In this document: in pieces, positions 1-15,715 of the stretch
Position numbering within the stretch: position 1 is the stretch's first letter
How the letters are laid out: every line of letters begins with the position of its first letter
NCBI GenBank assembly: GCA_044868695.1
Contig: JBIOWP010000103.1
Span: forward strand, 1-16,954
Direction: 5' to 3'
DNA: 16,954 bases
Source: a bacterium
Lineage (GTDB): Bacteria > Sysuimicrobiota > Sysuimicrobiia > Sysuimicrobiales > Kaftiobacteriaceae
Position numbers and translations under genes: made by a program
Notes under the pieces: generated by a model
What the model saw: the letters and a program-made list of their open reading frames with translations, nothing else
The model's database searches: none
Told to the model about the DNA's origin: nothing

Positions 1-954
1 CGATTCGATCAGCGTCGGCTTCCCCTGGGCCTTCAGCCACCCCACCCGATAGAGCAGCAGCCGCGCGGTCTCCACCCGGAGTTTCATCTGCACGATGCGG
101 TGAGCCACCGCCTGGAACTTGCCGATCGGCTGCCCGAACTGCTTGCGCTGCCTGGCGTAGGCGACGCACTGCTCCAGTTGGCGCTGCATCGTCCCCACGG
201 CGCACGCGAGGATGAAACTGCGCTCCCAGTCCATCGAAGTCGTGAAAATGGCCATGCCCGCACCTTCCGCGCCGAGGAGGTGGTCTGCGGGCACCTCCGA
301 CTCATGGAAGGCGAGCTCGGCCATCGGCGAAGTCCGCAAGCCCATTTTGTGGATCTCCCCGCCGACGGACAGTCCTGGCGTGTCCCGCTCCACGATGAAC
401 GCGGAAATCCCGGCAAACCCCTTGGCGGGATCGGTGCTGGCAAATACCGCGAAAATGTCCGCCACCGGCGCGTTGGTAATAAACGTCTTGCTGCCGTTGA
501 GGATGTAAGTACTGCCCCGGCGTTCGGCGGTGGTGCGCAGGCTGAAAGCGTCCGAGCCCGAGGCGGGCTCGGTCATCGCCTGGACCCCGATGAGAGAGCC
601 GTCACACAGGCCGCGGAGGTACCGCTGCTGCTGGTCCTCACGGCCGAAACGCCAGAGCGGAAGTTGGCAGCTCCACATCTGGGCGTTGAGCGAGAAGAGG
701 AGACCTTCGTCTTTGCAGCCGTAGCCCAAGGCCTCCAGCGCGATGGCCGTGGTCAGCGGATCAACGCCGCTGCCGCCGTAGGCTTCCGGAAAGCACAACC
801 CCTGGATGCCGAAATGGGCGCACTTCCCCCAGGCGTCCCGCGAGAACTCGCCGCTCGCGTCGCGGCGCACGATGTCGTCATTCAGTTCTCGTTGGGCAAA
901 CCTGATGACGGAGTCCCGGAGTTGGACCTGCTCCGGAGTCAGCGCAAAGTCCAT
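1..954 (-). CDS. Acyl-CoA dehydrogenase family protein, L-prolyl-[PCP] dehydrogenase-like (PltE/RedW/PigA type); 3' end runs off the window
   Basis: Hand translation (not in ORF track): ATG at 954, GGGAG upstream, open to position 1 (318 codons). MDFALTPEQVQLRDSVIRFAQRELN...PEAYGGSG...ALEALGYGCKDEGLLFSLNAQMWSCQLPLWRFG...AMTEPASGSDAFSLRT...LNGSKTFITNAPVAD...KMGLRTSP...SMDWERS...RKQFGQPIGKFQAVAH. ACAD motifs are unambiguous; the subfamily call rests on the recalled LGYGC-D-GL-FS and M-WER motifs. Confidence 0.93.
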   Translation of the reverse strand, partial: MDFALTPEQVQLRDSVIRFAQRELNDDIVRRDASGEFSRDAWGKCAHFGIQGLCFPEAYGGSGVDPLTTAIALEALGYGCKDEGLLFSLNAQMWSCQLPLWRFGREDQQQRYLRGLCDGSLIGVQAMTEPASGSDAFSLRTTAERRGSTYILNGSKTFITNAPVADIFAVFASTDPAKGFAGISAFIVERDTPGLSVGGEIHKMGLRTSPMAELAFHESEVPADHLLGAEGAGMAIFTTSMDWERSFILACAVGTMQRQLEQCVAYARQRKQFGQPIGKFQAVAHRIVQMKLRVETARLLLYRVGWLKAQGKPTLIES

Positions 955-994
955 GGCTCGGCTCCCGCCAGGGGAGCAGGTCGGAGGATTGAAA

Positions 995-2755
995 TTACCG
1001 GCATCCTGCCACCCCTTCGGCGATTGTCACCACTCGATTGGCGGCTACGTTGCGGCAGACAAGAATCCAATGATTCGTCCCAGGCCACCGGATCCAGAGT
1101 TCGTCCACATTGTGCGACGATCCGAGCCCAAAGTGCGGATCCATTTGCGACTGCGACAGATAGCCATCCAGTACATGCACGGCACGGATCTGCTGCTTCG
1201 TTCCCACCTTGATCTTGACCCATGCGCCAACTGCGTCCTGTAGGCGCCTGCCGATCACGTGCACTCGGAGGTAGTTTCCAACTGGTCCATCGTTTCGGAA
1301 CAGCCGGTTTCGTGTCCCGCGGTTTGGCACAAACCAGTCCAGATCGCCGTCGTTGTCGACATCTGCCCAAGCACTGCCCTGCGTAGATCCCATATCCGCT
1401 GCGCCCATTCGAGCGGTCACGTCGACAAACTTCGCTCGACACGTCTCCACGAGCAGGTTTTGGTACAAGAAATTGGGCATCGCTGCGGCCACACCGACCC
1501 CTCCACTGGCGGGCACCATGGCCTCGAATCGATACAGCCACGCCGCAAGAGCGGGAGACATGAACCGGCGGGGGATCGAGACAAGTGCGGTCACGAGGCG
1601 CTTCGCTGGCTTGGATTCCGGCTTCGTCCGAGCACCCGCGTTCCCTGCGACCACGCTGAGATCAAGATCGCCATCGTTGTCGAAGTCGATGAAGTTCGTC
1701 CCCCACTCGACAACGCCGGTCGGGTGCAAGCCGGCGGTTGCGGTCACATCTGCAAAAGTCCCGTCGCAGTTACTCCGGTACAGTCGGCTGGCCAGGTCGC
1801 CGAGAACATCTGCTCCGAACCCGCCCTGGCCGTTGAGGTTCAACCCCGTGATAAACACGTCGAAGCATCCGTCGTTGTCGTAGTCCCCCCACGTTACGCC
1901 CATGGCATTGTTAGGGGGTGCTCCGGGAGTATCATCGGTCGCCGCCGGGAAAGCCAGCTGGGTCGCTTGAGCAAAGTGGTTTCCTTCGTTGCGATAGAGT
2001 TCGATCCCCCAGTAATCAATAGCGAGGAGAAGATCCACATCGCCGTCCGCGTCGTAATCAAACCAGCTGCCCAAGTATGGGAATCGCGGCCCGGCAGGAT
2101 CATCGAGCCCATACCGCGCAGCCACGTTGACAAACACGAAAGGCGAGTCCTGGCGGAAAAAGGCGTTCAGCCGCAATATCCATCTTCCGATGCGGGCCGC
2201 TACAAACCCGTCGTAGTCTCCGTCCCGGTCGAAATCGGCCCAGTCGACCGATGCCGCGCCGACCTCAGGTATTGCTACGTCCGCCTGGGTATCGACGAAA
2301 GTCCCCTCCCCCGTATTTCGATATAGTCTATTCGCCTCCGGCGGAGTGCCGCCGCTGTTGACCGTGACGAACAGGTCGGGATCTCCGTCAGCATCCATGT
2401 CTACAAACGCACATCCAATGGCACGCACCAGATCACTTTGAATACCGGATCTCTCGGCGATGTCTACAAACATCCCCCGCCCATCGTTCCGCCATAGGCG
2501 GCTATGGCCTTCGAGGTTAGCTACGAATAGGTCTTGATCGTGATCGCCGTCGATATCGGCCCAGCAGGCGCCTCGGGAGATCGCGCGAGGCTCGGCCATT
2601 CCTGGAGACGCGATGTCGGTGAACTGCCGTGGCCCCGGCCCGCCTCCCTGGAGCCGGAGTGTTGCCGTCACGAGCAGCAGGACGGCGAGGCTCGCTCCCC
2701 AGTAGACGGCGGCGCGCGAGGCCGCAGCCCGCCGCGGATCAGAAGACTGACTCAT
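995..2755 (-). CDS. CRTAC1-family protein: FG-GAP/VCBS-type Asp-rich repeats plus C-terminal ASPIC/UnbV domain, exported
   Basis: 586 aa; N-terminal hydrophobic segment (YWGASLAVLLLVTATL); about seven DxDxDGDxD repeats (WADIDGDHDQDLFVAN, DMDADGDPDLFV, WADFDRDGDYD, DYDADGDVDLL, WGDYDNDGCFD, DFDNDGDLDL, WADVDNDGDLD); ASPIC/UnbV motifs DAVGAWVKI, GYLSQS..PHFGLG, IRWPG. Confidence 0.92.
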   Translation of the reverse strand: MSQSSDPRRAAASRAAVYWGASLAVLLLVTATLRLQGGGPGPRQFTDIASPGMAEPRAISRGACWADIDGDHDQDLFVANLEGHSRLWRNDGRGMFVDIAERSGIQSDLVRAIGCAFVDMDADGDPDLFVTVNSGGTPPEANRLYRNTGEGTFVDTQADVAIPEVGAASVDWADFDRDGDYDGFVAARIGRWILRLNAFFRQDSPFVFVNVAARYGLDDPAGPRFPYLGSWFDYDADGDVDLLLAIDYWGIELYRNEGNHFAQATQLAFPAATDDTPGAPPNNAMGVTWGDYDNDGCFDVFITGLNLNGQGGFGADVLGDLASRLYRSNCDGTFADVTATAGLHPTGVVEWGTNFIDFDNDGDLDLSVVAGNAGARTKPESKPAKRLVTALVSIPRRFMSPALAAWLYRFEAMVPASGGVGVAAAMPNFLYQNLLVETCRAKFVDVTARMGAADMGSTQGSAWADVDNDGDLDWFVPNRGTRNRLFRNDGPVGNYLRVHVIGRRLQDAVGAWVKIKVGTKQQIRAVHVLDGYLSQSQMDPHFGLGSSHNVDELWIRWPGTNHWILVCRNVAANRVVTIAEGVAGCR

Positions 2756-2858
2756 AGATGTTCCACCTATGCGGAAGAGTCGTGCGGCATACGGTTCACG
2801 CGGCGGGGGAAGATCTCGCGAAACGCGCCGGGCGTGGAGATGATAATCTCAAAATCTG

Positions 2859-2896
2859 CGAAAGCGGGCCGGCCCACACGGGCCCGCCCGCTTTCG
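2859..2896 (-). terminator. Strong GC-rich intergenic hairpin, probable intrinsic terminator inside the minus-strand cluster
   Basis: CGAAAGCGGG (2859-2868) pairs perfectly with CCCGCTTTCG (2887-2896), inner GGCCC/GGGCC stem, 4-nt loop; on the minus strand the GC stem is followed by TTTCGCAGATTTT (interrupted U-tract). Confidence 0.6.
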
Positions 2897-2955
2897 TCGT
2901 GCACACCTGCACTCACGAGCGCCGCCATTGGCCGCCCGCGTCAGACTAATTTCTT

Positions 2956-4152
2956 CTACCGGCACGCCCCCGTGCCAGAGCTGTTGAGGATCAGCACCCC
3001 GGGGAACACGCACATCACCGGGTTGATGCCCGCGTCAGACACGAACTTGCTGTCCTGCACCGTTCCCTCGCCGGCCAGGAGACCCGGTTCAGCCTTCCGG
3101 AAGCGCCAGACGGCGCGGGCGACTGTAAAGTTCCTGACGCTGGACATGAACCATGCGCCCTTCAGGTCTTCGGTGAGGACCAATCCGTGCCAGTCATACG
3201 AGACATCCTCCAGCACCAGCCCATCGTGCCACGCGAGGGGATTGCCGTTGTACTTGCCCAACCCCATGCAGCCGAAGAACTTCACCCGGCGCAGCGTCAC
3301 GCGATACGTCGGTACCTGGTGTGCCCCGAACCCGAAGTTTCTGCAATCGGCAAACAGCGAGTCTTCAACCAGCACGTCGGATACAATGCCAGGAGGTGCC
3401 GCCCAGAGGGGCTCAATGTCGATGGCGCTCCTCGCGGACTGCCGGAAGTCGGAATTCCTGATGGTAATAAACTGGCCGGACACCAACGCGATCGACTGTC
3501 GTCCCGAGATCTTGCCTACGACGCGGTCGATCAGCACGTTCGTCGGTCGGGGTTGGAGGAAGGCCCCGCCCACGTAAATGAAGTCGCCGTGCACGCCTCG
3601 GATGTCCAGTCCCGACAGGGTGATAGCCGCGGTCGCGACTCCGATGTCTACCCCGTGGGCTGTCTCACGGACCGGATCGTAACTCCGGCTCTGCAGCGGA
3701 CCACGCACCGAGAGGTTGACGAGCTCGATATTGGCACTGTTGTCGATCGAGACGTATGGATAGAAGGGGACGTTCCTCGGCCACCCGGTAGGTCTGAGCA
3801 GCTGCGCATAGCGTCGCAGCCCCACGCCGGTCACACCCGGCGGCGCCTGTAGGCGCAAGGTGGATTTCCCACGGATCATCACCGTCGTGTCCACCCGGTA
3901 CATGCCTTCGAAGAGCAATGTCGTGAACGGTCCCGCAGCGGCGATGGCTTCGTTGAGCCGGTCGGTCACGTCGATCGCCGGGTCGGCGGGAATCCCCAGA
4001 TCAGTCGTCAGGCGAAGCGTTGGTCCTGTGGCTGCCGCGATCGCCGCACGCGGGCTCGACGCAACGGCTGGCGGCAGAATGCCAGAATGTGCGACAATCA
4101 GACCGGTCATCAGAACCAGACCTGCGAGGGAGAAAGCAGCCAGCTTGAGCAT
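2956..4152 (-). CDS. Secreted right-handed parallel beta-helix (pectin-lyase fold) protein
   Basis: Start moved to ATG 4152 (AAGGAG upstream); signal-like MLKLAAFSLAGLVLMTGLIVA; beta-helix-type segments DVTDRLNEAIAAA..GMYRV, NIELVNLSVRG, HGVDI, ITLSGLDIRGVHGDFIYVG, NVLIDRV, GRQSIALVSGQFITIRNSDF, AIDIEP, DVLVEDSLF. Confidence 0.82.
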   Translation of the reverse strand: MLKLAAFSLAGLVLMTGLIVAHSGILPPAVASSPRAAIAAATGPTLRLTTDLGIPADPAIDVTDRLNEAIAAAGPFTTLLFEGMYRVDTTVMIRGKSTLRLQAPPGVTGVGLRRYAQLLRPTGWPRNVPFYPYVSIDNSANIELVNLSVRGPLQSRSYDPVRETAHGVDIGVATAAITLSGLDIRGVHGDFIYVGGAFLQPRPTNVLIDRVVGKISGRQSIALVSGQFITIRNSDFRQSARSAIDIEPLWAAPPGIVSDVLVEDSLFADCRNFGFGAHQVPTYRVTLRRVKFFGCMGLGKYNGNPLAWHDGLVLEDVSYDWHGLVLTEDLKGAWFMSSVRNFTVARAVWRFRKAEPGLLAGEGTVQDSKFVSDAGINPVMCVFPGVLILNSSGTGACR

Positions 4153-4218
4153 GATCTCACTCCTTTTGACCACGCGGGCAAACCGCGGGTGCATTCGAAC
4201 CAAGCCCGTGGATTGCAC

Positions 4219-4242
4219 CCCGGGACGGCGCCCGGGACGGCG
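4219..4242. repeat. Perfect 12-bp tandem duplication (CCCGGGACGGCG x2)
   Basis: 4219-4230 and 4231-4242 are identical; intergenic, adjacent to a minus-strand TTGACA (4250-4245). Confidence 0.9.
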
Positions 4243-4372
4243 TTTGTCAAAAGGGACGAGTTCAAACGCTCACTACTGGCTATGCCCTCCCCCAACTTGA
4301 ACTAGGCCGCAATATGGAGCAACTTCGGCGCCGATTATCGAACAGCCGTTTGCTGACACCCGGCACCGCGTG

Positions 4373-4909
4373 TCAGCGCAGCACTTCGCAATCCAGGCAA
4401 TCGATTTCCACGGCTGCAACCGTACGCATGAGCGTTAGCAGGACGCGCACCCGGTCGGCACGCGAGGCTGGTCGTTCCAGAATGCCCTCCAGGCCGGCAA
4501 AGGGACCGTGGGTGATACGGACGCGCATGCCGGAATGCAGTATCGGCTCCCAATGCAGCACGCCGGAGGTGCACCGGGTCTGAAGGATCGCGATGGCATC
4601 CTCCGGAACCGGAATAGGTACTCCACCGGTCCCCACGATCTGCTTCACACCAGGCGTCCATCGCACGGTGTTCCACTCCGCGGGCTCGAGCGCCATGTGG
4701 ACAAACAGATAGGAAGGAAAGAGCGGCTCCACCAACCGAACCTTGCGGCCCCGCCACCGCCGGACGGCCTCCAGGCGAGGCAGGAAGACATCGAGTGCGC
4801 TGCGCCGCTGCAGCCACTGGACGACACGGTCTTCGGACGCCGGCTTCGTCTGAACGGCATACCAGTGCGCCTTCGCAGGTTCCGGCGGCGTGACCGCGGG
4901 GATACTCAC
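4373..4909 (-). CDS. NusG-paralogue transcription antiterminator (RfaH/UpxY/LoaP-like)
   Basis: Likely GTG start at 4909 overlapping the upstream TGA (GTGA), 178 aa. NGN domain WYAVQTKP..EDRV...VFLP...EPLFPSYLFV...VRWTPGVKQIVG..PIPVPE; KOW motif GMRVRITHGPFAGLEGI. Confidence 0.93.
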   Translation of the reverse strand: MSIPAVTPPEPAKAHWYAVQTKPASEDRVVQWLQRRSALDVFLPRLEAVRRWRGRKVRLVEPLFPSYLFVHMALEPAEWNTVRWTPGVKQIVGTGGVPIPVPEDAIAILQTRCTSGVLHWEPILHSGMRVRITHGPFAGLEGILERPASRADRVRVLLTLMRTVAAVEIDCLDCEVLR

Positions 4910-5565
4910 CCGGAGACTGCCTCTTTCATGGCGATGCGGTTCAGAACGATTCCCCGGATTTTCACGTCGACCCGCTCCAGCCGCCGCCGAACTTCCAGCT
5001 CCGCCTGCCGCTGCGCGGCCTCGGCCGGGAGGACCAGGATCACGCCATCGGTGAACCGGCCCACGTGTAGCGCATCGGGATACCGTAGGACGGGCGGCGT
5101 ATCGACAACGGTAAACGCGCACCGCGTGCCCACCTCCGCAAACAGCGCGGCTAACCGCTCGGTCTGCATCATCGCCGACGCTGAACCGCGCACCTCCCCG
5201 GCCGGGAGCAGCCGGAGCGCGGGCACCGGCACTGCCTGCAGAGCGTCCTCCAGGCGTACCGCCCCGGCAAGGATGTCGGCAACACCTGGATGGGACGGGG
5301 TATCAAAGGGCCGGTGGAGGGCCGGATCGCGCAAGTTCGCGTCTACCAGGATCGTGGACCGTCCCGCATGTGCCGCGATCAGGGCCAGATTCAGGGCAGT
5401 CGTGGATGCGCCATCGCCGACCCGCGCGGCCATCACGCAAATCGTGCGCAGCGGCTCCGTCCCATTGTGGAGCACAAGGCTGGCCGCAAGCAGCTCGAAA
5501 GCCTCGACGAAGGGTGACCCTGGCGGGAAATCACTGACCACTGCGAACTTCCCGTTACTGGTCAT
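4906..5565 (-). CDS. CpsD/CapB-family BY-kinase homologue, probable pseudokinase
   Basis: 219 aa; Walker A region AARVGDGAST (Lys replaced), Walker A' LVDANLRDP, Walker B VVDTPP, DGVILV, C-terminal GIVLNR; ATGA-coupled to the upstream co-polymerase. Confidence 0.9.
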   Translation of the reverse strand: MTSNGKFAVVSDFPPGSPFVEAFELLAASLVLHNGTEPLRTICVMAARVGDGASTTALNLALIAAHAGRSTILVDANLRDPALHRPFDTPSHPGVADILAGAVRLEDALQAVPVPALRLLPAGEVRGSASAMMQTERLAALFAEVGTRCAFTVVDTPPVLRYPDALHVGRFTDGVILVLPAEAAQRQAELEVRRRLERVDVKIRGIVLNRIAMKEAVSG

Positions 5566-7130
5566 CTCCCCGTCTCCGTCTGCACAGCAGGACTCACCAA
5601 CGCGCCGATCGCCGAAGCCATGTCGACAGTGAACTCGCGGGTGGACTTGCCCTTCAGCCGCAGCCCAGCTCCCGTCCCCAGCCCCGCGAGCAACACTAGG
5701 AACACCACCAGGACCGGGATAACCGGCAGCGGTTTGCGGGACGCCACGTTGGGGACGCGCGCCAGGACCGGAGCGCCCAGCGTGCGCTCGGCGTCTTGCG
5801 GGGACCGGATGCGGTCTTCAGATGTCTCCAGCAGCACCGCAGCGATAATCCCCAGCAGCAACCCTAGGAGGACGGCGATGCCCAGGCGGACCAGGAGCTT
5901 CCCGCTCTCCGGCGCTTCGGGGACGGCCGCCGGCTCCATCACGTGCACCCCGGCCGGGACGTACCCGGCCTCGTTCTCCCGCAGCAGCGCCTCCAGATAC
6001 CGCTCGGAAAGCAGAGAATAGTTCTCCTGGTAGATGCTGCGCTCGCGAAGCAACGCGGTGAACTCCCGTTCCACCCCTGGCAGTGCGGCCACCGCAGCCT
6101 GCCGGCGGCGTTCCGAAAATGCCAGGGCATTCAGTCGGGCCACCGCCGCGGTTCGATCAATCTCCAGATCTGCGATCTCCTGCACCAGCTGGTCGTGGAC
6201 CGGGTTCACCTGCTCCTGCTCTTTCCCAAGAATCTTGCGGGTCTCGGAGGCGAGCCGCCGGCGGATCGCGATGATTTGCTCGCGCAGCAGCTGGATCTTC
6301 GGGTGATCGGGCGTGTACTTCTGAGAGAGCTCCCCGCGCTGGATCTCCAGTTCGGTAAGCGCGGTCTGCAATTGCGCGAAGACCGGGTTGGTCTCGATGT
6401 CCTGGATGGTGATCCGGGTGAACTTTTCCCGTGCCAGCCGCGCCATTGCCGCGGCCAGTTTCGCCTCATCTTCCTTGAGACGCAGGAGAGTCGTCTCCGC
6501 ATCCTGCTGCGTGGAGACCAGGTCCTGCGTGGTATTCGCGATGGCCTGGCTGAGGTCCGCGATGCCGGCCTTGGCCTTGTAGCTCTCGATCTGGCGGTCC
6601 AGCTCGTCTAGACGGGCCCTGGTCGAAGCCAGCTGCTGCTCGATGAAGAGCCGCACGTCCCGCGCATCGCGCCGGTTGGCCTCACGGAAGAAGTCGATGA
6701 ACTGGGTAGCCGCCTCATTGGCCAGTGTCGGCGCCAGGAGGCGGTCGGTCGAGGAGGCCCGGATCGAGATCAGATTGGTCCCGGACACTTTTGAGGCCTG
6801 CAGGCTCTTCCGCACCTGCTCTGGAGCGCCTAGGCTGAGTTTGGTCGCGACGCGTTCGGCAATGGGCCGGCTGGTGATGAGCTGTACGATGCTGTTCGTA
6901 ACAGTCGTCTCTGCTTTGGCGCCCGCGCTGTTGTTCTGGTTCTCGGTCGCGGTCGTCGTCGGGACGGTCAACAGCGACTGCGTGGTGATCATCAGTGTGG
7001 TCGTGCCGACGTACTTCGGGGGCTGCGTGGCCATCCGCCCATAGACGAAACCCACCACGAGCCCGGCGAGGAGCAAGACGAGCCGCAGCCGCTTGAGCAC
7101 GGCCCGGTAGTAATACGCGACCTCGCTCAT
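5562..7130 (-). CDS. Polysaccharide co-polymerase (Wzc N-terminal/GumC/CapA-like) without fused kinase
   Basis: Start moved to ATG 7130 (GGGAG upstream), 522 aa; TM1 LVLLLAGLVVGFVYG, PPKYVGTTTL, long coiled coil with KYTPDHPKI, VMEPAAVPEAP, TM2 LGIAVLLGLLLGIIAAVLLE, then DRIRSPQDAERTLGAPVLARVP. Confidence 0.92.
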   Translation of the reverse strand: MSEVAYYYRAVLKRLRLVLLLAGLVVGFVYGRMATQPPKYVGTTTLMITTQSLLTVPTTTATENQNNSAGAKAETTVTNSIVQLITSRPIAERVATKLSLGAPEQVRKSLQASKVSGTNLISIRASSTDRLLAPTLANEAATQFIDFFREANRRDARDVRLFIEQQLASTRARLDELDRQIESYKAKAGIADLSQAIANTTQDLVSTQQDAETTLLRLKEDEAKLAAAMARLAREKFTRITIQDIETNPVFAQLQTALTELEIQRGELSQKYTPDHPKIQLLREQIIAIRRRLASETRKILGKEQEQVNPVHDQLVQEIADLEIDRTAAVARLNALAFSERRRQAAVAALPGVEREFTALLRERSIYQENYSLLSERYLEALLRENEAGYVPAGVHVMEPAAVPEAPESGKLLVRLGIAVLLGLLLGIIAAVLLETSEDRIRSPQDAERTLGAPVLARVPNVASRKPLPVIPVLVVFLVLLAGLGTGAGLRLKGKSTREFTVDMASAIGALVSPAVQTETGR

Positions 7131-7150
7131 GGTTATCCGGATCTCCCGTC

Positions 7151-8056
7151 TCAGAAACCCGTCAGGGCCAGGACGAGGCTGATCCCCGACAGCCACTGCA
7201 TCACGTCGCCGAACGTGACCGTCTTCGCCGGGACATAGACGATATCGGTGTTCTGCAGAACCATGTTAGTGGACTGGTCGCCTGTCTTGAGCATGGCGGC
7301 CACGTTCACGGTGGCCACCGGGGTTCGGCCGGTCGCGGTCTGCCGGACGATCGTGACCGATGTCAGGACAGCCTTTGGAGCCGGGCCACCGGCGGACGCG
7401 ATGGCGTCGAGGACTTTTGCACCCTCGAGCAGATCGTAGGCGCCGGGGGACTGCACGCTGCCCAGAACGAGCACGCGGTTCTTCAGCTCGGGGACGAGGA
7501 TCACGTCTCCTACTTCCAGCGCGACATCTGCCGACGTATCACCCTGGAGGATCAGGCGGCCCAGGTCAAGAGGCATCGGCGTGCCCGAAGCGCGTCGGAT
7601 GACCGACGCCGTCTTCAACGCGGCTTTGGAGGTGAGCCCACCGGCCTTGGCGATAGCCTCCATGGCCGTCCAGCCAGGCATCATCTCGTAGGCCCCTGGG
7701 TTGCGCACTTGCCCCACCAGATAAACGAACGCCTCCCGGTTCTGTGAGACAATCACCGTCACTTGTGGACGTTTCAAGAACCGCCGTAGGGCCGCGGCCA
7801 GGGTGTCCCGTAGCTGGTCGACCGTAAGACCCGTGACTTCGACCTCTCCCACCAACGGGAACGTGATCTTGCCGTCCGGGCGCACCGTGACCTTCTTTGT
7901 TAGGTCCGGCTCGTCCAGCACGGATATCTCGAGCTCGTCGCCAGGACCCAGTCGGTACTCCTGGGCCAAGGCCGGATGGCCAGCCAGCAAACTTGCGGCC
8001 AGCCACAGTGCTGCCAGTGCCGCAATTGTCTTGTGGACTACCTCAGAACGCGTCAT
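7151..8056 (-). CDS. wza: Polysaccharide export protein, OPX/Wza family (Poly_export plus two SLBB domains)
   Basis: Start moved to ATG 8056 (GGAG upstream), 301 aa; EYRLGPGDELEISV...VRPDGKITFPLVGEVEVTGLT...PQVTV; SLBB repeats VYLVGQVRNPGAYE and VLVLGSVQSPGAYDL; DIVYVP then a C-terminal amphipathic helix. Confidence 0.93.
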   Translation of the reverse strand: MTRSEVVHKTIAALAALWLAASLLAGHPALAQEYRLGPGDELEISVLDEPDLTKKVTVRPDGKITFPLVGEVEVTGLTVDQLRDTLAAALRRFLKRPQVTVIVSQNREAFVYLVGQVRNPGAYEMMPGWTAMEAIAKAGGLTSKAALKTASVIRRASGTPMPLDLGRLILQGDTSADVALEVGDVILVPELKNRVLVLGSVQSPGAYDLLEGAKVLDAIASAGGPAPKAVLTSVTIVRQTATGRTPVATVNVAAMLKTGDQSTNMVLQNTDIVYVPAKTVTFGDVMQWLSGISLVLALTGF

Positions 8057-8217: not shown

Positions 8218-8445
8218 CTACCTTGCGGTGACGTCCCCTTCGTCGAGCGGGCACAGCCCTTGGCCATACTCCGTCAGGGGACGCAAGACATAAAAGAGGT
8301 CGCGCGGCCCTTGGTGTTTGCGCGCGAAGTAGAATCCGATGACGTGGTACGCCTCACCCTGAAACAACACGGTCGGTTGTCCGCGGTCCACACTCCTCAC
8401 CGTGCACTCATCGGCTCGGGCGTTGACATGACCTCGTGCCTGCAT
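8218..8445 (-). CDS. Possible small hypothetical protein (75 aa)
   Basis: From internal ATG 8445: MQARGHVNARADECTVRSVDRGQPTVLFQGEAYHVIGFYFARKHQGPRDLFYVLRPLTEYGQGLCPLDEGDVTAR; protein-like beta-strand pattern, same strand as the EPS cluster; weak RBS; no family recognised. Confidence 0.35.
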   Translation of the reverse strand: MQARGHVNARADECTVRSVDRGQPTVLFQGEAYHVIGFYFARKHQGPRDLFYVLRPLTEYGQGLCPLDEGDVTAR

Positions 8446-8624: not shown

Positions 8625-9887
8625 ATGACCCGCAATAGACAGAGGATCGGGTGCAGCGACCGGGGCGGAAGGTACACCCTCCGCGGCCTGGGAGCGATGG
8701 CGCCTGCTGGTGTCCTGCTGCTCCTGGTGCTCAGCGTCCCCGCTGCACCGGCCGACCTCGCCGTTCTGACCCCTGTCGTCATCCCGGTCCCAGAGCAGTT
8801 CCATACCGGGGGTGCCTATACGGCGATCCAGGCCGCGCCCGACGGAAAAGTGTATCTTGGCACCACTTTTTATGATGGATTCGCTCGTTTTCTGGTATGG
8901 GCGCCAGGTCAGCGGGAGTTCCAGTTGGTCGCCGACATGGCGGAAGCGACAGGAGAGAAGACTCCCGGCCCGTACGCACAGGCCAAGATCCACACAAAAC
9001 CGGCGATCGCACCGGACGGAAAGGTCTACTTTGGGACGAAGTCCGGGAAGCCTGCGGATGACGAGCGCTGGCAGGCGAATTATCCGGGAGGGCACCTGCT
9101 CGTCTACGATCCCGGCGCGGCACGTGTGACCGATCTGGGGATCCCTCGACCCCGCCAGAGCATCATCGCGGTCGGCGTCGACCCTCGTCGCAACATCATC
9201 TATGCGCTCACCGACCCCGAGGTCCACCTCATCACGTTCAATCCGCAAACGCGCACCTTCGTCGACAGAGGCCCGCTTGCCTCGTCGGGTCCGCCCACAC
9301 GGCATCTCGTGGTACTGGCCAATGGGGATGTGTATCACCCAGCCGGGAATGACGCGTTCGTACGGTATGATGCCGCCGCCAGCCGGATGGAACGCGTCCC
9401 CCTGCAGTTTTCTGGTCGCGGGTCTTACGAAGTATCAACGATAGGCCACGGTCCGTACGCTATGGCGGCGAATCTCGATGGGAGCCGGTTCCACGGCGTC
9501 GGGCAGTCTTCGGGCGAGACATATTCATTTGTCCCCGCGCCGCAGTCCCTGACCGTGCTGTTGCACGGCCGCGCTGACAAACCGGAACCGGGGCGACGCG
9601 TCATCTACTACACGATGGCCGCTGCCCCTGACGGAAATGTCTATTACACTGCTGCGGCCGTTGAGGAGGCTCCCGAGGGCGTGCTATATGTCCTGAAGCT
9701 CGTCACCACGGCTGGACGGCCAGAGGTTGTGGGGCGCGTTGCGCCGATTCCGCCCCCGCCAGGATGGCAGCGACGGTATCGTCCGCAGACTCAGGGGGCA
9801 ACGGTCGCCCCAGATGGGACTCTGTACGTCATGCTCGCCTACCCGCTTCGGGTTCTAGCTTTTCCACGGTTGGCCGCGCGGCCATGA
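8625..9887 (+). CDS. Secreted beta-propeller protein of unknown function
   Basis: GGAGGG upstream of ATG 8625; hydrophobic signal GVLLLLVLSVPAAPA; repeated blades APDGKVYLGT, APDGKVYFGT, ANGDVY, APDGNVYY, APDGTLYV; motifs AQAKIHT and YPGGHLLVYDP..TDLGIP. Confidence 0.82.
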   Translation: MTRNRQRIGCSDRGGRYTLRGLGAMAPAGVLLLLVLSVPAAPADLAVLTPVVIPVPEQFHTGGAYTAIQAAPDGKVYLGTTFYDGFARFLVWAPGQREFQLVADMAEATGEKTPGPYAQAKIHTKPAIAPDGKVYFGTKSGKPADDERWQANYPGGHLLVYDPGAARVTDLGIPRPRQSIIAVGVDPRRNIIYALTDPEVHLITFNPQTRTFVDRGPLASSGPPTRHLVVLANGDVYHPAGNDAFVRYDAAASRMERVPLQFSGRGSYEVSTIGHGPYAMAANLDGSRFHGVGQSSGETYSFVPAPQSLTVLLHGRADKPEPGRRVIYYTMAAAPDGNVYYTAAAVEEAPEGVLYVLKLVTTAGRPEVVGRVAPIPPPPGWQRRYRPQTQGATVAPDGTLYVMLAYPLRVLAFPRLAARP

Positions 9888-11086
9888 CGTGGGTTCTGCT
9901 GGCGCGGACGTGTGCTGCCGTCACACTCTGCGTTGCGCTCGCCTCAGGGACGTCACCCTCGCCAGCTCAGGGCAAACGTGTGGCGTTCATCGTCGAGAGC
10001 TGGTACCCGGCGTCTCATGCCGATGTCATCGGGGCACGATTCCTCGAAGGATATCGGGTCGGGACTACTCACTACTTCTCTCCCGTGACGGTAGGCTCGG
10101 TGTACACCAATGCCCCGCGGCCGACCGACCAGACACAAGTACTGGCAGCGCGGTATGGATTTCGGGTGGCGCGAACGATCGCCGACGCCCTAGTCGACGA
10201 TCCCGCTGCCCCGCGCCCGCGATTGGCAGTAGACGGCGTGCTCATCGGCACGCGCGAAGATCTTCTGCGCCGCGGCGGCGAGCCGGCCAGCCCAACCCCC
10301 CGGCTTCAGGTGGTGAGGGAAGTGCTCCGGATCCTTGATCAGACGGGATCGCGTGTACCGGTGTTCTTTGACAAAATGATCTCGGCCAACTGGGCGGACA
10401 GCCAAGCCATCGTCGCGGAAGCCGAGCGTCGAGCGATTCCCCTGATGGGAGGTTCAGTCCTTGGGTTCATGCCGCTGGATCGACCGCTGCGCAGTGGGCG
10501 CATGGACGTTGTCGTCGCCATCACTGCTGGTCCGTACCGGGCGGACGCGTTTCACCTCGCTGAACTGCTTCAATCGCTGATGGAACGCCGGAGTTCCCGC
10601 GAGGTCGGCGTGAGTGGCCTTCGCGACGTCGGCCGCGCCTATTGGGCGATGCCGGATCGCGAGGTGTGGGGAGGCCGCGTTTTCGATGCGCTGCTCGCAT
10701 CCGTCAAGACGTTACCGGGCGGTCCACCGGGCTCAGGGGCTTCGATGGAACCCTCGGTCCTCCTGATCCAGTATCGGGATGGGGCAAGGGCCGTGCTGGC
10801 CGCCGTGCCGCGAGCGTTCGGCGAGGGAGAATTTCGCCTAGGCGTCCGCTACAGCGATGGATCCATCGAGACCAGCGGGGTCACCCTTCAGGGACCGCCA
10901 TTTGACCATTTCGGCTACCTCGTCCATGCCCTGGTCGCGCTATTCAACACTGGGCGTCCGCCGGTCCCCATTGAGCGTACGCTATTGACCACCGGCCTTG
11001 TCTTGCACGGTCTGAACGCGCAGGCCGCCGCCGTGGCTACACCCACCCTCGCTATCTCGTATCCTGCACCAGCAGGGGGTCCTTAA
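9884..11086 (+). CDS. Secreted conserved hypothetical protein, probable Rossmann/Gfo-Idh-MocA-like fold
   Basis: ATG 9884 overlaps the upstream TGA (ATGA), 400 aa; signal-like N-terminus; motifs KRVAFIV..SHADVI..RFLEGY, LAVDGVLI, VPVFFDK, PLMGGS, HF.YL, TGRPPVPIERTLLTTG, recalled from an uncharacterised family. The fold call is inference. Confidence 0.75.
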   Translation: MTWVLLARTCAAVTLCVALASGTSPSPAQGKRVAFIVESWYPASHADVIGARFLEGYRVGTTHYFSPVTVGSVYTNAPRPTDQTQVLAARYGFRVARTIADALVDDPAAPRPRLAVDGVLIGTREDLLRRGGEPASPTPRLQVVREVLRILDQTGSRVPVFFDKMISANWADSQAIVAEAERRAIPLMGGSVLGFMPLDRPLRSGRMDVVVAITAGPYRADAFHLAELLQSLMERRSSREVGVSGLRDVGRAYWAMPDREVWGGRVFDALLASVKTLPGGPPGSGASMEPSVLLIQYRDGARAVLAAVPRAFGEGEFRLGVRYSDGSIETSGVTLQGPPFDHFGYLVHALVALFNTGRPPVPIERTLLTTGLVLHGLNAQAAAVATPTLAISYPAPAGGP

Positions 11087-11975
11087 TCCCGGTCGGGGCC
11101 TCGCCACCGTTGGATTCCACAGGCTGGCTGATCTGCCCGAGCGCCATCGACCGCTGGTAGGCGGCCCAAACCGCCTTGGAAAGAACCGTGCGGAAACTTC
11201 CCTTTTCGAGCTGGTACAGCGCCGCCGCGCTGGTCCCCCCTGGCGACGTCACCATGTTCCGCAACTCGGCCGGATGGAGCTGAGCCTGTGCGGCGAACTC
11301 GGCGGCGCCACGGATGGTCTGGAGAACAAGCTGACGCGCATCGGCTCGGGAGAACCCCAAGTGCACAGCCGCGTCGATGAGCGCCTCCATGAGCAAGAAG
11401 ACATAGGCCGGTCCAGTTCCACTAACCGCCGTGGCCATGTCAAGATACTCTTCCTTCTCCACCGGAAGATCTGTCCCTAGCGCGCGCAGGATGGCGCGTG
11501 CTTGCGACCGCTGCTGGAAATTGACTTCCGCCGTCGCCGTCCACACCGTGATCCCTTCGCCGACCTGCGCAGGGGTGTTGGGCATGCAGCGAATGACCGC
11601 CCGGTGCAACGTACCTTCTACAATTGTCCTGATTCGCGCGCCGGCGACGACCGACACCAGGCAAGCCTGCGGGGCCAGGCTGCCTCGAATCTCAGCCAAG
11701 ACCGACGGCAGTATCTGCGGCTTAACCGTCAATACCACGATGTCCGCGGCGGCCGCGGCCAATCGGTTCTCTTCGCTCGTGTGTACACCAAAACGTGAGT
11801 GCAGTTCGTGGCGCCGGACCTCCCGGGGATGACTGGCGGTAATGGCGTTCGGGGAGACGAGGTGATGGGCCAGGACCCCCCGGATCATCGCTTCCGCCAT
11901 GACGCCAGCCCCGATGAACGCCAGTCGGGAGTTCGCCAACACCTCAGAGCCCTGTTGGGACGCGTGTGGATCCAT
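11052..11975 (-). CDS. proC: Pyrroline-5-carboxylate reductase
   Basis: FIGAGVMAEAM, LTVKPQ, VSVVAG, IRCMPNTP, TAVSGTGPAYVF, LRNMVTSPGGTS; true start may be GTG/TTG near 11942/11939; 3' end overlaps the convergent gene by 35 bp. Confidence 0.96.
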   Translation of the reverse strand: MDPHASQQGSEVLANSRLAFIGAGVMAEAMIRGVLAHHLVSPNAITASHPREVRRHELHSRFGVHTSEENRLAAAAADIVVLTVKPQILPSVLAEIRGSLAPQACLVSVVAGARIRTIVEGTLHRAVIRCMPNTPAQVGEGITVWTATAEVNFQQRSQARAILRALGTDLPVEKEEYLDMATAVSGTGPAYVFLLMEALIDAAVHLGFSRADARQLVLQTIRGAAEFAAQAQLHPAELRNMVTSPGGTSAAALYQLEKGSFRTVLSKAVWAAYQRSMALGQISQPVESNGGEAPTGIKDPLLVQDTR

Positions 11976-12063
11976 TTGGCATCAGCCTATGTGGGTTGGC
12001 CGACCATGTCGATCCGTCGAGAGGTAGATGGGGGGACCTAAACGGTAGAGGCCCCGCGGGGGA

Positions 12064-12711
12064 CTACTCGATCAAGCCTTTGCGCAGCACGAACGCGACA
12101 GCCTGCGTGCGGTTGCGGGCGCCCAGCTTGCGCAAGATGTTGTGGGTATGAGTCTTAACGGTCCCCTCGGCCACCACAAACTTGGCGGCGATTTCTCGAT
12201 CCGTGGCTCCCTTCGCCAGTTCGATGATAATATCGAGCTCACGGGAGGTGAGCCCATCGGATTCAAGCCGCATCCTGGCCCGTTGCTCGCGCGAGAGATG
12301 CGCAAGCCGTTCCATTAACTTCCGCGTGACCTCGGGATGGAAAAAGGCTCGACCGTTGCACACCGAACGGAGCGCCGCACTGAGATTCGTCACGGGGATA
12401 TCCTTCAGGACGTATCCTGTCGCGCCAGCCTCAATTGCCCGAAGCGCGCGACCGTCGTCCAGCTCGTCGGTCATGATGATGATCTCGGTAGCGGGAGTGG
12501 TCTCCTTGATCTCGAGTGCCGCGCGGACTGTGTCGCCCGGCATGTCCTGGTCCATCAACACCACGTCTGGTTTCAGCTCCCTAGCCAGTCGGGCAGCATC
12601 ATCAGCCGTCGCCGCCTCTCCTGCGATTTCAATCTCCGCGGCGTTCCCGAGCAGCGACCGAATCCCGTGCCGAATAAAGGCAAGGTCGTCCGCCACCAGC
12701 ACCCGGATCAT
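12064..12711 (-). CDS. NarL/FixJ (LuxR-HTH) family response regulator
   Basis: MIRVLVADD...PDVVLMD(phospho-acceptor)..MPG...GATGYVLKD; HTH LTSRELDIIIELAKGATDREIA..FVVAEGTVKTH..NILRKLGARNRTQAV. Confidence 0.95.
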   Translation of the reverse strand: MIRVLVADDLAFIRHGIRSLLGNAAEIEIAGEAATADDAARLARELKPDVVLMDQDMPGDTVRAALEIKETTPATEIIIMTDELDDGRALRAIEAGATGYVLKDIPVTNLSAALRSVCNGRAFFHPEVTRKLMERLAHLSREQRARMRLESDGLTSRELDIIIELAKGATDREIAAKFVVAEGTVKTHTHNILRKLGARNRTQAVAFVLRKGLIE

Positions 12712-13080
12712 CTTCCAGCCCCCCACTGCTCAAACCCTCAGCGCACCAACCGCCCAGGCGCCCGCGGGCGCGTTTGCAATAGGCCCAATATCACGGCAAT
12801 TTCACTGCCACATCATCCTCACCTGAGACTACTCGACCGTGTTTGGAAGGGGCGGATCAAGGCGGAGGACAGCAGACGAAGAAAGATATGAGTCCGTCGC
12901 TCCGGTGCCCTCGAAACCGACGGTCGGAACATCCAGGCTCGCTTGTCAATCAAGAACCTAGGCCGCGCTGCGAAGTCGAGCCTGTTCGCGTCGCAGCCGC
13001 CCGTCAGGGGGATTTCTTACTATTCTGGCCCGCCGACCGTTCTCCTCCTTGTGAGACTCCGACTTGTGCGAAGTTGAAAG

Positions 13081-13210
13081 GGAGCAAACCCCGCCTTTGG
13101 GTGCCAAAGGCCCGAGGAAGGACTTCCCGCCCTCCATCGGTTGGGAACCTGAACCCTATCCCACCATCTGGTGGTTCGCAGGTTCCACCCCGGATGCGTA
13201 CGCTTGCTCC
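13081..13210 (-). ncRNA. Candidate structured RNA (multi-branch fold), family not recognised
   Basis: Closing stem 13081-13089/13202-13210, perfect 8-bp stems 13093-13100/13104-13111 and 13144-13151/13179-13186, inner CCACCA/TGGTGG; a G-U pair in the closing stem favours the minus strand. Confidence 0.4.
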
Positions 13211-13252
13211 TATCAGTCTAGCTATCCAAAGAATGACCGGGGGCTCTGAGAA

Positions 13253-13560
13253 ATGCTGCCCAAAAAGGCCAAATACAGGCTGATGGCGCTCCTCCTGTCT
13301 GCCGGCAGCACCCCCGCGGGCCCCTGCTGATCATCTCTGAACTGGCGCGGAGGGAGCAGGATCCCCAAAGAGATCCTCGAGCTCATCCTGCTGGTTCTGA
13401 AGACCATGGGGTTCCTGTAGAGCAAGAAGGGCAGAGGAGGAGGGTACTTCCTGGGCCGACCTCCCGAAGCCGTCAGGCCCGGCAAGCTCGATTCTTACAA
13501 GCCTACATCGACCAGCGCTTAAGCGTCGGCGTGTGGAATGCGGGGAGGCGAATTTAGTTC
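13253..13560 (+). pseudogene. Rrf2-family (CymR/IscR-like) transcriptional regulator pseudogene
   Basis: Stitched across frameshifts: MLPKKAKYRLMALL / RQHPRGPLLIISELARRE / RIPKEILELILLVLKTMGFL*SKKGRGGGYFLGRPPEAV...TSA* / RRRVECGEA; in-frame TAG at 13418-13420; S-KG-GGGY-L-RPPE is the Rrf2 wing motif; C-terminal part missing; end coordinate approximate. Confidence 0.85.
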
Positions 13561-13597
13561 GCTCGGAGGGCCTATTCTCCTCCTTCATGATGTCGTC

Positions 13598-13639
13598 TAG
13601 ACACTCAGCGACCTTTCGTGTACTGTATACAGTCGACGA
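13598..13639 (+). promoter_or_regulatory. Sigma70-type promoter with overlapping GntR-type palindromic operator
   Basis: TAGACA (13598-13603), 17 bp, TACTGT (13621-13626); perfect palindrome ACTGTATACAGT (13622-13633) inside a 20/24 palindrome TCGTgtACTGTATACAGTcgACGA (13616-13639). Confidence 0.65.
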
Positions 13640-14523
13640 TGCAAGCCAGGACGGTGCTCCCCCACGCCAGCAGCGTCCTCAGCCTGAGGGTGAATCCCGC
13701 GGCGCTGGAGTTTGACCCGGCGCACGTCCGCTCGCTCCACCACCAGGTCCAGGCGTTCATCTTGAAAGCCACGTACGAGGGATCCCTCAACTCCGGGGAC
13801 CGCCTCAACGAAAGCGCGATCAGCGCCCAGTTGGGGATCAGCCGGACCCCAGTCCGCGAAGCCCTCACATACTTGGAAGGCTCCGGCCTCGTTGTCCGCC
13901 GGCCCCGCCGCGGCTTCTTTCTGGCCACGCTGTCCGCCGACGATGCCGCGCACTGCTACGCCGTGCGGGAGCTGCTGGAGGGGCACGCCGCCCGCCAGGT
14001 GGCGGGCCGGTTGACGGCATCGGGGTCCGGCGCTCTGGAAAATATCATTGAGGCCATGGGGCGCGCGGTCGAGGCCGGCGACTGGCCGCAGGCCGCGGTG
14101 CACAACATCGCCTTTCACGAAACCGTGGTCGATCTGGCCGCCAATCCCGTCCTGCTGCGGATGTGGACGTCGGTCGGGCCGGTCCTCTGGTATTTCGACT
14201 CACTGGCTCGCCGGGCGGTCGACTCGAAGACCAGAGAGAGTTTCGTCAAACGCCACAGACTGCTGGTGTCCGTGCTGCGGCGGAACGATGCCCCCTCGGC
14301 CGAGGCGACGTTCGTTGCACACATCGCCAGTGTCAAGCGTGAAGTGATCGCGCGTCTGAAGACGAGCGACGGCATCCAGAGGGGGAGCGAACATGAGGAG
14401 TCGATTCCGGGGCGAGATCATCCTGCTCGTCATCGTGCTGCTGAGTCTGATCAGCAGCGGCACACCGCTCGGGGCGCAGCAGCCGCTCGTGCTGCGCGTC
14501 CTCGACGAAGGCCCGACCGGTAA
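13639..14523 (+). CDS. GntR-family regulator, FadR/FCD subfamily
   Basis: wHTH GSLNSGDRLNESAISAQLGISRTPVREAL..LEGSGLV..PRRGFF; FCD domain YAVRELLEG, HNIAFHE, NPVL, H..L...L....A.....H; start uncertain (ATG 13639 chosen); stop lies 131 nt inside the next gene. Confidence 0.92.
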   Translation: MQARTVLPHASSVLSLRVNPAALEFDPAHVRSLHHQVQAFILKATYEGSLNSGDRLNESAISAQLGISRTPVREALTYLEGSGLVVRRPRRGFFLATLSADDAAHCYAVRELLEGHAARQVAGRLTASGSGALENIIEAMGRAVEAGDWPQAAVHNIAFHETVVDLAANPVLLRMWTSVGPVLWYFDSLARRAVDSKTRESFVKRHRLLVSVLRRNDAPSAEATFVAHIASVKREVIARLKTSDGIQRGSEHEESIPGRDHPARHRAAESDQQRHTARGAAAARAARPRRRPDR

Positions 14524-15709
14524 TCCCTGGGCCAAAGCCGCCGCAGAATACGAACGGGTCACCAACGGCCGGGTGCGGGTGGAGTGGATTTCTTCCCCCT
14601 GGCCGGGCATCCAGACGCGGCTGGCGACGACATTTGCCGCCGGGGACACGTCGATCGACATCACCAAGACCTGGGGCGGGTGGACCAACGAGTTCTGGCC
14701 GTTCTTCCAGGCCATCGATGACAAGTGGCCCGCCAGACAGCGGGAGTCGTTGCTCACATATGCGCTGCATCCGGTGTCCGCGGCCGGCCACGTCTACGGC
14801 GTGCCCCGGCATGTCACCCTCTACTACTTCTACTGGAACAAGAAGATGTTCCAGGAAGCCGGACTGGATCCCGACAAACCACCGCAGACGTACGATGAGC
14901 TGGTGGCGATGTGCACCAAGCTCACGAAGGACCGCGACGGTGACGGCCGCATCGACCAGTGGGGGTATGCGGAGAGCATGGAAGTCGGCTCCACGATGCT
15001 GAACACCTTTGAACGGTGGCTGTACCGCGCCGGCGGCGACATTCTCAACCCGCAGGGCACGCCGGTCTTCAACGACCGCCGGGGCCTGCGCGCCCTCCAG
15101 GCGTCGTACGACCTGATGTACAAACACAAGTGCATGGACACCGGGCAGCTCCAGCTGGGCAACGTCGCCACCCGCCAGGTGTTCAACGCCGGCCGTGTGG
15201 CGATGATGTCCATGTGGGGATCGGGCTGGGCCGAGGCCAACGATCCCACCCGTGCCACGAAGGACGTCCTCGGCAACGTGGGCGTCACGATTCTGCCGTC
15301 GCTGGATCCGTCGGTCACGCGCAGCGCCACGATTCACGGCTCGGAGGGGTACGCCATCACCAAAGCGGCGGCGCAGCGTGGGGTCCTGGAGGAAGCCTGG
15401 AAGCTCCTTCAGCATATGACCTCCCCGACCGTGCAGCTGGAAGGGCTGCGGACCCGCGGTTATATGCCCCCGGCGCTGTCGCTGTACACGAATCCTGAAC
15501 TGACACGCGATCCCAGCCTCGGGCCCTTGATGGCCGCGACGGCCGGGGCGGGCCTGTATCCGGTGAAACGGTTTGTCTGGTCGGAGTACCCGCGGCTTGA
15601 GGATGCCATTGAGTCCGAGCTGCAGGCGGCGCTGCGCGGACGTAAACCGCTGCAGGCCGCGCTCGATTCGGCGGCGGCGGCGGTCGCCCGCATCCTGCGG
15701 GGACCGTAG
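14393..15709 (+). CDS. Sugar ABC transporter (CUT1) solute-binding protein
   Basis: GGGGGAG RBS; Sec signal without Cys; GHVYGVP...YFYWNKKMFQEAGLDPDKPPQTYDEL; DRDGDGRIDQWG loop; FNAGRVAMM..G.W; AWKLLQHMTSP. Confidence 0.95.
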   Translation: MRSRFRGEIILLVIVLLSLISSGTPLGAQQPLVLRVLDEGPTGNPWAKAAAEYERVTNGRVRVEWISSPWPGIQTRLATTFAAGDTSIDITKTWGGWTNEFWPFFQAIDDKWPARQRESLLTYALHPVSAAGHVYGVPRHVTLYYFYWNKKMFQEAGLDPDKPPQTYDELVAMCTKLTKDRDGDGRIDQWGYAESMEVGSTMLNTFERWLYRAGGDILNPQGTPVFNDRRGLRALQASYDLMYKHKCMDTGQLQLGNVATRQVFNAGRVAMMSMWGSGWAEANDPTRATKDVLGNVGVTILPSLDPSVTRSATIHGSEGYAITKAAAQRGVLEEAWKLLQHMTSPTVQLEGLRTRGYMPPALSLYTNPELTRDPSLGPLMAATAGAGLYPVKRFVWSEYPRLEDAIESELQAALRGRKPLQAALDSAAAAVARILRGP

Positions 15710-15715
15710 GCGGCG

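Follow-up and report, generated by a model that had tools for sequence, protein, structure and literature searches.

The closest described systems are the thiotemplated proline-to-pyrrole modules PltF/PltL/PltE (with the halogenase PltA), PigI/PigG/PigA, RedM/RedO/RedW, Bmp4/Bmp1/Bmp3, ChmJ/ChmI/ChmH, and AnaC/AnaD/AnaB, whose pyrroles are starter units of small-molecule natural products. Carrier-fed decoration of the cell envelope is known for D-alanine, which the Dlt system adds to teichoic acid, and for glycine, which AlmEFG adds to lipid A. In clorobiocin biosynthesis, CloN3/4/5 form pyrrole from proline and CloN1/6/7 move it to a sugar 3′-OH, with CloN7 as the precedent for pyrrolyl transfer onto a sugar hydroxyl (PMC11218499); CouN7 is the corresponding enzyme of the coumermycin pathway (PMC8748450). 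Here we analyze a 16,954-nt stretch of DNA from an uncultured soil bacterium of the Kaftiobacteriaceae (phylum Sysuimicrobiota; GCA_044868695.1, JBIOWP010000103.1), called the window below, in which polysaccharide export genes run into a gene for a prolyl-carrier-protein dehydrogenase of the acyl-CoA dehydrogenase (ACAD) type. The window makes up all of contig C103, and the genome to which it belongs comprises 2.59 Mb and is 95% complete; C56, C53, and C107 are other contigs of this genome, and loci of relatives are labeled L011, L059, and so on.

We propose that this locus makes a pyrrole-2-carbonyl group on a carrier protein and transfers it to an exported glycan, a reading of the sequences that we hold to be probable on balance. 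It draws on the join of the window to C56, the family of the ACAD, adenylation domains (A-domains) with proline pockets at 8/8 orthologue loci of the phylum, a stand-alone carrier, a glycan context at 35/50 orthologue loci against 0/20 controls, co-occurrence with the hydrolase-fold protein H1, the lack of condensation domains and modular polyketide synthases (PKS), the presence of proA, and the CloN7 precedent. The initial annotation had suggested a pyrrole-decorated polysaccharide, and the family of the ACAD, the carrier, transferase candidate, flippase, and glycosyltransferases found downstream, and their co-conservation all support it.

With the thiotemplated modules, the system shares the dehydrogenase family and its catalytic glutamate, a stand-alone carrier and, in relatives, a proline-type A-domain pocket and an optional flavin halogenase. 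Unlike them, it sits in an assembly without a nonribosomal peptide synthetase (NRPS) or modular PKS extender, its genes are interleaved with Wza, Wzx, and glycosyltransferase genes, and its scores fall below the PigA and RedW cut-offs. As in CloN1–7 and CouN1–7, a proline-derived pyrrole-2-carbonyl on a carrier would be moved to a sugar hydroxyl; the acceptor is a small-molecule deoxysugar in the aminocoumarins and would be a glycan here. No second carrier and no CloN2-type or CloN6-type gene occurs among the locus genes scanned, a 5.2-kb gap lying outside that scan. Like Dlt and AlmEFG, an adenylation enzyme and a carrier would supply an envelope decoration, but the pocket is of the proline type, oxidation would take place on the carrier, and the scanned genes include no MBOAT/DltD or AlmG transferase. 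We read the system as a familiar pyrrole-forming module in a role, likely glycan tailoring, for which we found no earlier description.

The ACAD gene (window 1..954, minus strand) is cut by the contig end, leaving 318 of ∼381 amino acids with 192 nt missing. Its best NCBIfam scores are 394.8 bits for PigA and 372.1 bits for RedW, with the next family at 266.4. Neither equivalog cut-off (500 and 650 bits) is reached by this fragment, and three full-length orthologues also stay below them (PigA 457–485, RedW 420–440 bits). The best PDB matches are the prolyl-ACP dehydrogenase 4IRN (E 1.8e-111), PigA (3.5e-81), and 6CXT (3.5e-79), with ordinary enzymes following from 9.5e-73; 6CXT is named Bmp3 in PMC10849742. 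Glu244 aligns with the catalytic glutamate of PigA (5ZW0), a position occupied by alanine in 6AF6, and the conserved glutamate of the family is essential according to PMC10849742. In a quick tree of 88 rows, which contained no PltE or AnaB sequence, 20 ordinary ACADs split from 68 others, among them the window ACAD and two prodigiosin-cluster enzymes, with full Shimodaira–Hasegawa-like approximate likelihood ratio support (SH-aLRT 100), and the window ACAD clustered with seven phylum orthologues (support 99). The orthologues carry a C-terminal YSGT motif, compared with EIYEGT in 16/20 ordinary controls; this region is missing from the window ACAD. NCBIfam ranking, PDB matches, and the tree together rule out an ordinary fatty-acyl-CoA dehydrogenase and, at the level of sequence, place the enzyme in the prolyl-carrier dehydrogenase family, as its description as PltE/RedW/PigA-like had implied. 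By analogy with that family, it would carry out the four-electron oxidation to pyrrolyl.

Part of what lies beyond the contig end was recovered through the relatives and through other assemblies. Orthologues of the downstream genes of L011 are found on C56. In run X1, a contig of 25,981 nt contains window 1–5000 at 11,796–16,795 with zero differences and C56:1–6581 at 1–6,581 with one difference, and a 5,480-nt contig of run X3 spans both ends (window 1–144 and C56:1–122). These contigs were matched between the window and C56 comparisons by run, length, and depth, and in each of them a gap of 5,214 nt separates the window start from C56. Because X1 and X3 are possibly the source of the DNA itself, the join is assembly evidence, not independent biology. 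No contig of the assembly overlaps the window start, and a search of the assembly for the C terminus of the ACAD returned paralogues only.

Counted from wza through the last sugar dehydrogenase gene, the joined locus covers 46.7 kb, all of it on one strand, and C56 is wholly on one strand from 1 to 36.4 kb with a maximal spacing of 187 nt. For sugar synthesis, C56 encodes three UDP-sugar dehydrogenases (one partial), an epimerase, a PglF-like protein, and a DegT protein; for assembly, two GT2 and four GT4 glycosyltransferases, a Wzx flippase, and a priming transferase; and for modification, three sulfatase-fold proteins, two deacetylases, two GNAT proteins, the hydrolase-fold pair H1/H2, and the carrier, whose gene shares 14 nt with a GT4 gene. 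The locus also holds a GT2/GtrA/PMT-type trio. The flippase and glycosyltransferases that the initial annotation had expected downstream are therefore present in the same physical locus and, with the outer-membrane polysaccharide export (OPX) protein, co-polymerase, and priming transferase, make up components of a Wzx/Wzy-type system. The Wzy polymerase it had also expected did not turn up: C56:25642, the candidate considered, has approximately eight hydrophobic segments but neither matches Pfam nor resembles two Wzy_C proteins, and is not supported as Wzy. The three sulfatase-fold paralogues (C56:6577, 12770, and 16565) lack signal peptides and may transfer phospho- or sulfo-groups instead of hydrolyzing them.

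Directly after the cluster and on the same strand lie proB and proA (C56:34042–36383, or L035:15042–17383). We found proA in 0/21 family relatives and in 42/94 phylum genomes, yet it is present here, which suggests that it arrived with the cluster. The 95% complete assembly contains no NRPS condensation domain and no modular PKS, only two stand-alone ketosynthase-length open reading frames (ORFs), and it encodes one AcpS.

An A-domain follows the ACAD immediately in 8/8 phylum orthologue loci, ending 1,577–1,619 nt past the ACAD stop. Its pocket is DLFYLALVC in one of these loci and DLLYIALVC in seven, against DLLYLALVC and DLFYIAWVC in two solved proline ligases. The substrate-binding core of the L011 A-domain is closest to the two solved proline:carrier ligases; proline ligases rank first, and DltA models remain below cut-off. 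In the present genome the gap can hold the 192 nt that complete the ACAD gene together with an A-domain, with ∼2.5 kb to spare, and the A-domain probably lies there. The two A-domains on C53 are ruled out as the partner by their 37–42% identity, their pockets (DLLFLCLIA and DYNATTMRS), and their place in a separate cluster. Besides these two A-domains, whose pockets are not of the proline type, that cluster (C53:28.5–66.6 kb) contains two carriers and a separate NusG paralogue, and it is a second polysaccharide cluster of the genome. The stand-alone carrier of the locus (C56:19202–19444) is 62% identical to the L011 carrier, retains the DSL serine motif, and has 2MY5, 6CXT_A, and PigG as its nearest PDB carriers, far from DltC. 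Of the A-domain and carrier anticipated downstream, the carrier is thus present in the assembly and the A-domain has been seen in the relatives only.

To place the locus in context, we counted orthologues across related genomes, bearing in mind that kin are not independent. ACAD orthologues occur in 9/94 phylum genomes (this one included), in 30/250 genomes of one actinobacterial class, from which one unpublished genome was dropped, and in 18/301 genomes of the Acidimicrobiia, the class of L022. They are absent from 21/21 family relatives, and among the forty nearest relatives no orthologue was found, the best full-length matches reaching ∼43–44%. We read 8/8 phylum places, 24/32 places in the actinobacterial class, and 18/19 in the Acidimicrobiia, those omitted being the unpublished genome and matches near contig starts. 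Glycan context, defined as at least two polysaccharide families within a stretch of mostly ∼10 kb on each side, was present at 7/8, 17/24, and 11/18 of these places, respectively, or 35/50 in total, compared with 0/20 ordinary ACAD loci in the same screen; the label set was drawn partly from these orthologue loci, and its “Wzy” label included the C56:25642 protein, with no locus reaching two families solely through that label. The co-conservation of the ACAD with export and glycan genes holds in this sense. Cassette genes are dispersed among glycan genes in shuffled order, some overlapping them. Carrier-dependent flavin halogenases accompany the ACAD at 5/8 phylum loci, all five with the WxWxIP motif, and at 3/24 actinobacterial and 7/18 acidimicrobial loci. 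The present genome gives only a weak halogenase match, on C107 (E 1.2e-4), although the 5,214-nt gap may contain a halogenase gene. In a cultured example, a plasmid of Microvirga sp. VF16 (L110), genes for GT2, GT4, a priming transferase, and Wzc surround those for the carrier, the A-domain, and the dehydrogenase, and H1/H2 were not found within 25 kb. On a plasmid of Roseovarius pelagicus (L111:698–20795), a carrier, a dehydrogenase, a methyltransferase, and an A-domain with pocket DIFFIGSMC lie beside NRPS, flippase, and wza genes.

A candidate for the acyltransferase sought downstream is the pair H1/H2, encoded by intact open frames in the C56 part of the locus. H1 (C56:10993) has an α/β-hydrolase fold in its structure model (predicted local distance difference test score 80), with Cys121 at the nucleophile elbow; this cysteine is conserved in 17/17 aligned rows. 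Its partner H2 (C56:10115) has an arginine at the nucleophile position, as in 14/15 rows, and is predicted to be dead. The best NCBIfam matches of the two are TIGR03100 and TIGR03101, far under the cut-offs (60.9 of 168 and 84.4 of 203 bits). These exosortase A-associated hydrolases 1 and 2 of PEP-CTERM exopolysaccharide loci are likewise paired hydrolase folds found with a ligase and a carrier in glycan loci; unlike them, H1/H2 occur in a genome in which no exosortase was found. CouN7 uses a serine nucleophile, which sets the Cys/Arg pair apart from it. With a profile built partly from ACAD-positive genomes, H1 was detected in 9/9 ACAD-positive and 1/85 ACAD-negative phylum genomes, and in 28/30 positive and 20/220 negative genomes of the actinobacterial class, where it lies within 40 kb in 20/30. 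H1 loci picked away from the ACAD had at least two glycan families in 13/20 cases. H1/H2 are predicted to act as an acyltransferase pair. The pair is tandemly duplicated at L049:12759–16353 and L152:8797–11616. Several acidimicrobial loci without H1/H2 (L097:2546–6140, L098:13665–17234, and L101:15547–17782) instead have genes of lipoyl-like and weakly SGNH-like type close to sulfotransferase genes, which may point to an alternative transferase for the same cassette.

The proposed pathway would begin with a proline-specific A-domain, encoded in the gap, that loads L-proline onto the carrier, the distal proBA providing proline. The window ACAD would then oxidize the prolyl thioester through Glu244, presumably by four electrons. 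Cys121 of H1 would accept the acyl group and deliver it to a hydroxyl or amino group of a sugar in the cytoplasm, with H2 assisting; this step might instead fall to the two GNAT proteins of the locus, and a 4-amino-sugar made by the PglF-like and DegT proteins is a plausible acceptor. Wzx would flip the repeat unit, with export via the co-polymerase and Wza, and the NusG paralogue likely sustains transcription, presumably by antitermination. Relatives with a flavin halogenase would produce halopyrrole. What we observe directly comprises the genes present, their physical linkage, the family of the enzyme and its catalytic residue, the pocket residues of relatives, and co-occurrence; that a glycan is the acceptor we infer.

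Two alternatives concern the product. The decoration might be less oxidized or further altered, as 1-pyrroline-5-carbonyl (the two-electron product) or prolyl. By far the closest solved structure, at 1.8e-111 against 3.5e-81 for PigA, is 4IRN, which is AnaB, a two-electron oxidase that stops at pyrroline, and the full-length orthologues stay under the PigA cut-off (457–485 of 500 bits). A cyclic imine is nevertheless poorly suited as a stable decoration. Carrier-dependent flavin halogenases with WxWxIP at 5/8 phylum loci further weaken this explanation, since halogenation normally comes after pyrrole formation (PMC10849742), and we consider it unlikely. We give a similarly low probability to a cassette that makes a free small molecule, pyrrole-2-carboxylate or its halogenated counterpart, with H1 acting as the releasing thioesterase; the polysaccharide locus would then only house the cassette and be coregulated with it. 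ChmF, a hydrolase that releases the free pyrrole acid (PMC10849742), is a precedent for this; H1 has an esterase-like fold, and in L022, L027, L076, and L107 the cassette is complete yet no glycan genes accompany it. Against such a release speak the shuffled interspersion of cassette genes with the glycan genes that they overlap, the tendency of H1/H2 to follow glycan loci even without the ACAD, and the consideration that plain hydrolysis needs no dead partner.

Even if a group is transferred, it might go not to a Wza-exported polymer but to another envelope molecule, be it a glycolipid, a lipid, or a glycoprotein. The GT2/GtrA/PMT-type trio, the failure to identify Wzy, the degenerate kinase, and a weak ornithine-lipid ACP match of the carrier (41 of 130 bits for that model) could be read in this way, but the locus has Wza, a co-polymerase, Wzx, and a priming transferase, and we regard this option as very unlikely. 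Least probable of all is a cassette that is incomplete or decaying in this genome: the assembly has no A-domain orthologue and the cassette is absent from 21/21 family relatives, but the gap is long enough for the rest of the ACAD gene and an A-domain with ∼2.5 kb besides, the DSL serine motif is retained in the carrier, and the H1 and H2 frames are intact.

Beyond the 4IRN match and the ChmF precedent, several further observations weigh against a pyrrole-decorated exported glycan. Glycan context is missing at 15/50 orthologue loci; 4 of the 15 lie in NRPS/PKS clusters and several on short contigs, and L022, L076, and L107 combine a full cassette with long flanks that have no glycan genes. The best A-domain matches in this assembly are the 37–42% identical ones on C53, and the locus genes read include no convincing Wzy. 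The C-terminal histidine of H1 (His271 here) is present in only 10/17 aligned rows, and the nearest structures to the H1 model are esterases and lipases, not acyltransferases. In the Acidimicrobiia, H1 occurs in only 9/18 ACAD-positive genomes, compared with 15/283 negative ones, and the H1 counts carry the limits of a partly ACAD-derived profile and of related genomes. We still favor the transfer of a carrier-made pyrrole-2-carbonyl to an exported glycan.

The window itself contains the export-gene head of the locus. All seven of the co-oriented genes that had been described are present on the minus strand, from 8056 to the contig end, with spacings from wza to the ACAD gene of 20, −4, −4, 220, 200, and 40 nt; the last, between the ASPIC/UnbV and ACAD genes, is exactly as claimed. 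A Wza/OPX polysaccharide export protein (7151..8056; Poly_export PF02563 and two SLBB domains, TIGR03027 above cut-off) is followed by a polysaccharide co-polymerase of the Wzc N-terminal type (5562..7130), which scores 135.7 bits with TIGR03007, remains below the cut-offs of TIGR03007, EpsF, and TIGR01005, and has no C-terminal tyrosine cluster in its sequence. The next gene (4906..5565) encodes a protein resembling bacterial tyrosine kinases (BY-kinases; TIGR01007 105.1 bits, cut-off 108). In alignment, its Walker A lysine is missing, as in 3/3 phylum relatives (L011:5423, L059:8379, and L049:5650), and is retained in 2/2 actinobacterial relatives, which agrees with its earlier description as a dead-looking kinase. 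With this lysine lost and the tyrosine tail absent, an active BY-kinase with a tyrosine cluster is not encoded here, and the protein is predicted to be a pseudokinase conserved in these export systems.

The NusG paralogue (4373..4909, minus strand; PF02357) is RfaH/UpxY/LoaP-like, scoring 107.9 bits with RfaH and 86.9 with UpxY and staying under the cut-offs of all three models; it holds the same position in L011 and L059. A right-handed β-helix protein with a hydrophobic N terminus (2956..4152, minus strand) has no match in Pfam or NCBIfam; its Atlas look-alikes, at 0.96, are all right-handed β-helix clusters, and it is likely exported and glycan-binding or glycan-cleaving. The FG-GAP repeat/ASPIC-UnbV protein (995..2755, minus strand; Pfam) is encoded by a gene whose GC content at third codon positions, 0.68, is under the 5th percentile of the genome (0.77); a homologue stands after the A-domain in L061. 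Between NusG and the ACAD, L011 has neither gene and L059 has others, and the β-helix and ASPIC genes are variable passengers. An intergenic hairpin (2859..2896, minus strand; −36.6 kcal/mol, z −5.7) is a possible terminator or pause site: 0/200 shuffles were equally stable, for a region picked post hoc, and no U-run stands directly behind it. It is not among the predictions of a promoter and terminator scan, whose counts were near chance (2 vs. 2.2 and 11 vs. 7.2). This strong hairpin and the two gaps of 200–220 nt are difficulties for reading the seven genes as a single transcript.

Upstream of wza lies a small ORF (8218..8445, minus strand) that is 56% identical to L011:2491–2718, is conserved at the DNA level in L011 and L059, and gave no Pfam match. 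Next is a divergent pair (8625..11086, plus strand) of a β-propeller-like and a second protein, for which the Atlas points to an SMP-30/propeller-like family carried by few members. Homologues of the pair flank the cluster in L026 (18647–20952), L059 (12307–14675), and L064 (10024–12422), and a single member stands beside it in L028 and L063; the pair thus travels with the cluster, at either end of it in several relatives. The pyrroline-5-carboxylate reductase gene proC (11052..11975, minus strand; TIGR00112 above cut-off) is not supported as a dedicated locus gene: 84/94 phylum genomes have it, it lies on separate contigs in eight cassette-bearing relatives, and its adjacency may be chance. 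A LuxR-type response regulator (12064..12726, minus strand; Pfam) shares 74% identity with the regulator found ahead of wza in L011 and possibly regulates the locus. The GntR regulator and sugar ABC transporter at 13618–16954 stand apart from the finding.

In the literature searched, which left most subscription papers outside its coverage, we found among the papers listed neither a description of a pyrrole-acylated polysaccharide nor anything relevant to the function of an H1/H2-type pair, and a term search of two papers on the phylum (PMC11604079 and PMC11962464) gave zero occurrences of polysaccharide, pyrrol, or proline. We regard as evenly poised the broader proposal of a widespread, undescribed class of surface polysaccharides that bears pyrrole-2-carbonyl, and halopyrrole in halogenase-bearing relatives, made by a carrier-protein module like those of antibiotic pathways and installed by a new hydrolase-fold pair of Cys-nucleophile enzyme and pseudoenzyme. 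The idea is directly testable in cultured Microvirga sp. VF16, which carries the three-gene module among glycan genes. If true, it would give the uncharacterized hydrolase-fold pair a testable role and TIGR03100/03101-like proteins a function, and it would add a caution to genome mining, in that many PigA-like matches in soil bacteria would be glycan-tailoring genes. If a capsule or exopolysaccharide did carry a pyrrole or halopyrrole, thiotemplated pyrroles and carrier-fed envelope decoration would meet in one system, and these bacteria would display a surface group, aromatic and perhaps halogenated, with potential effects on phage recognition, grazing, adhesion, or metal binding.

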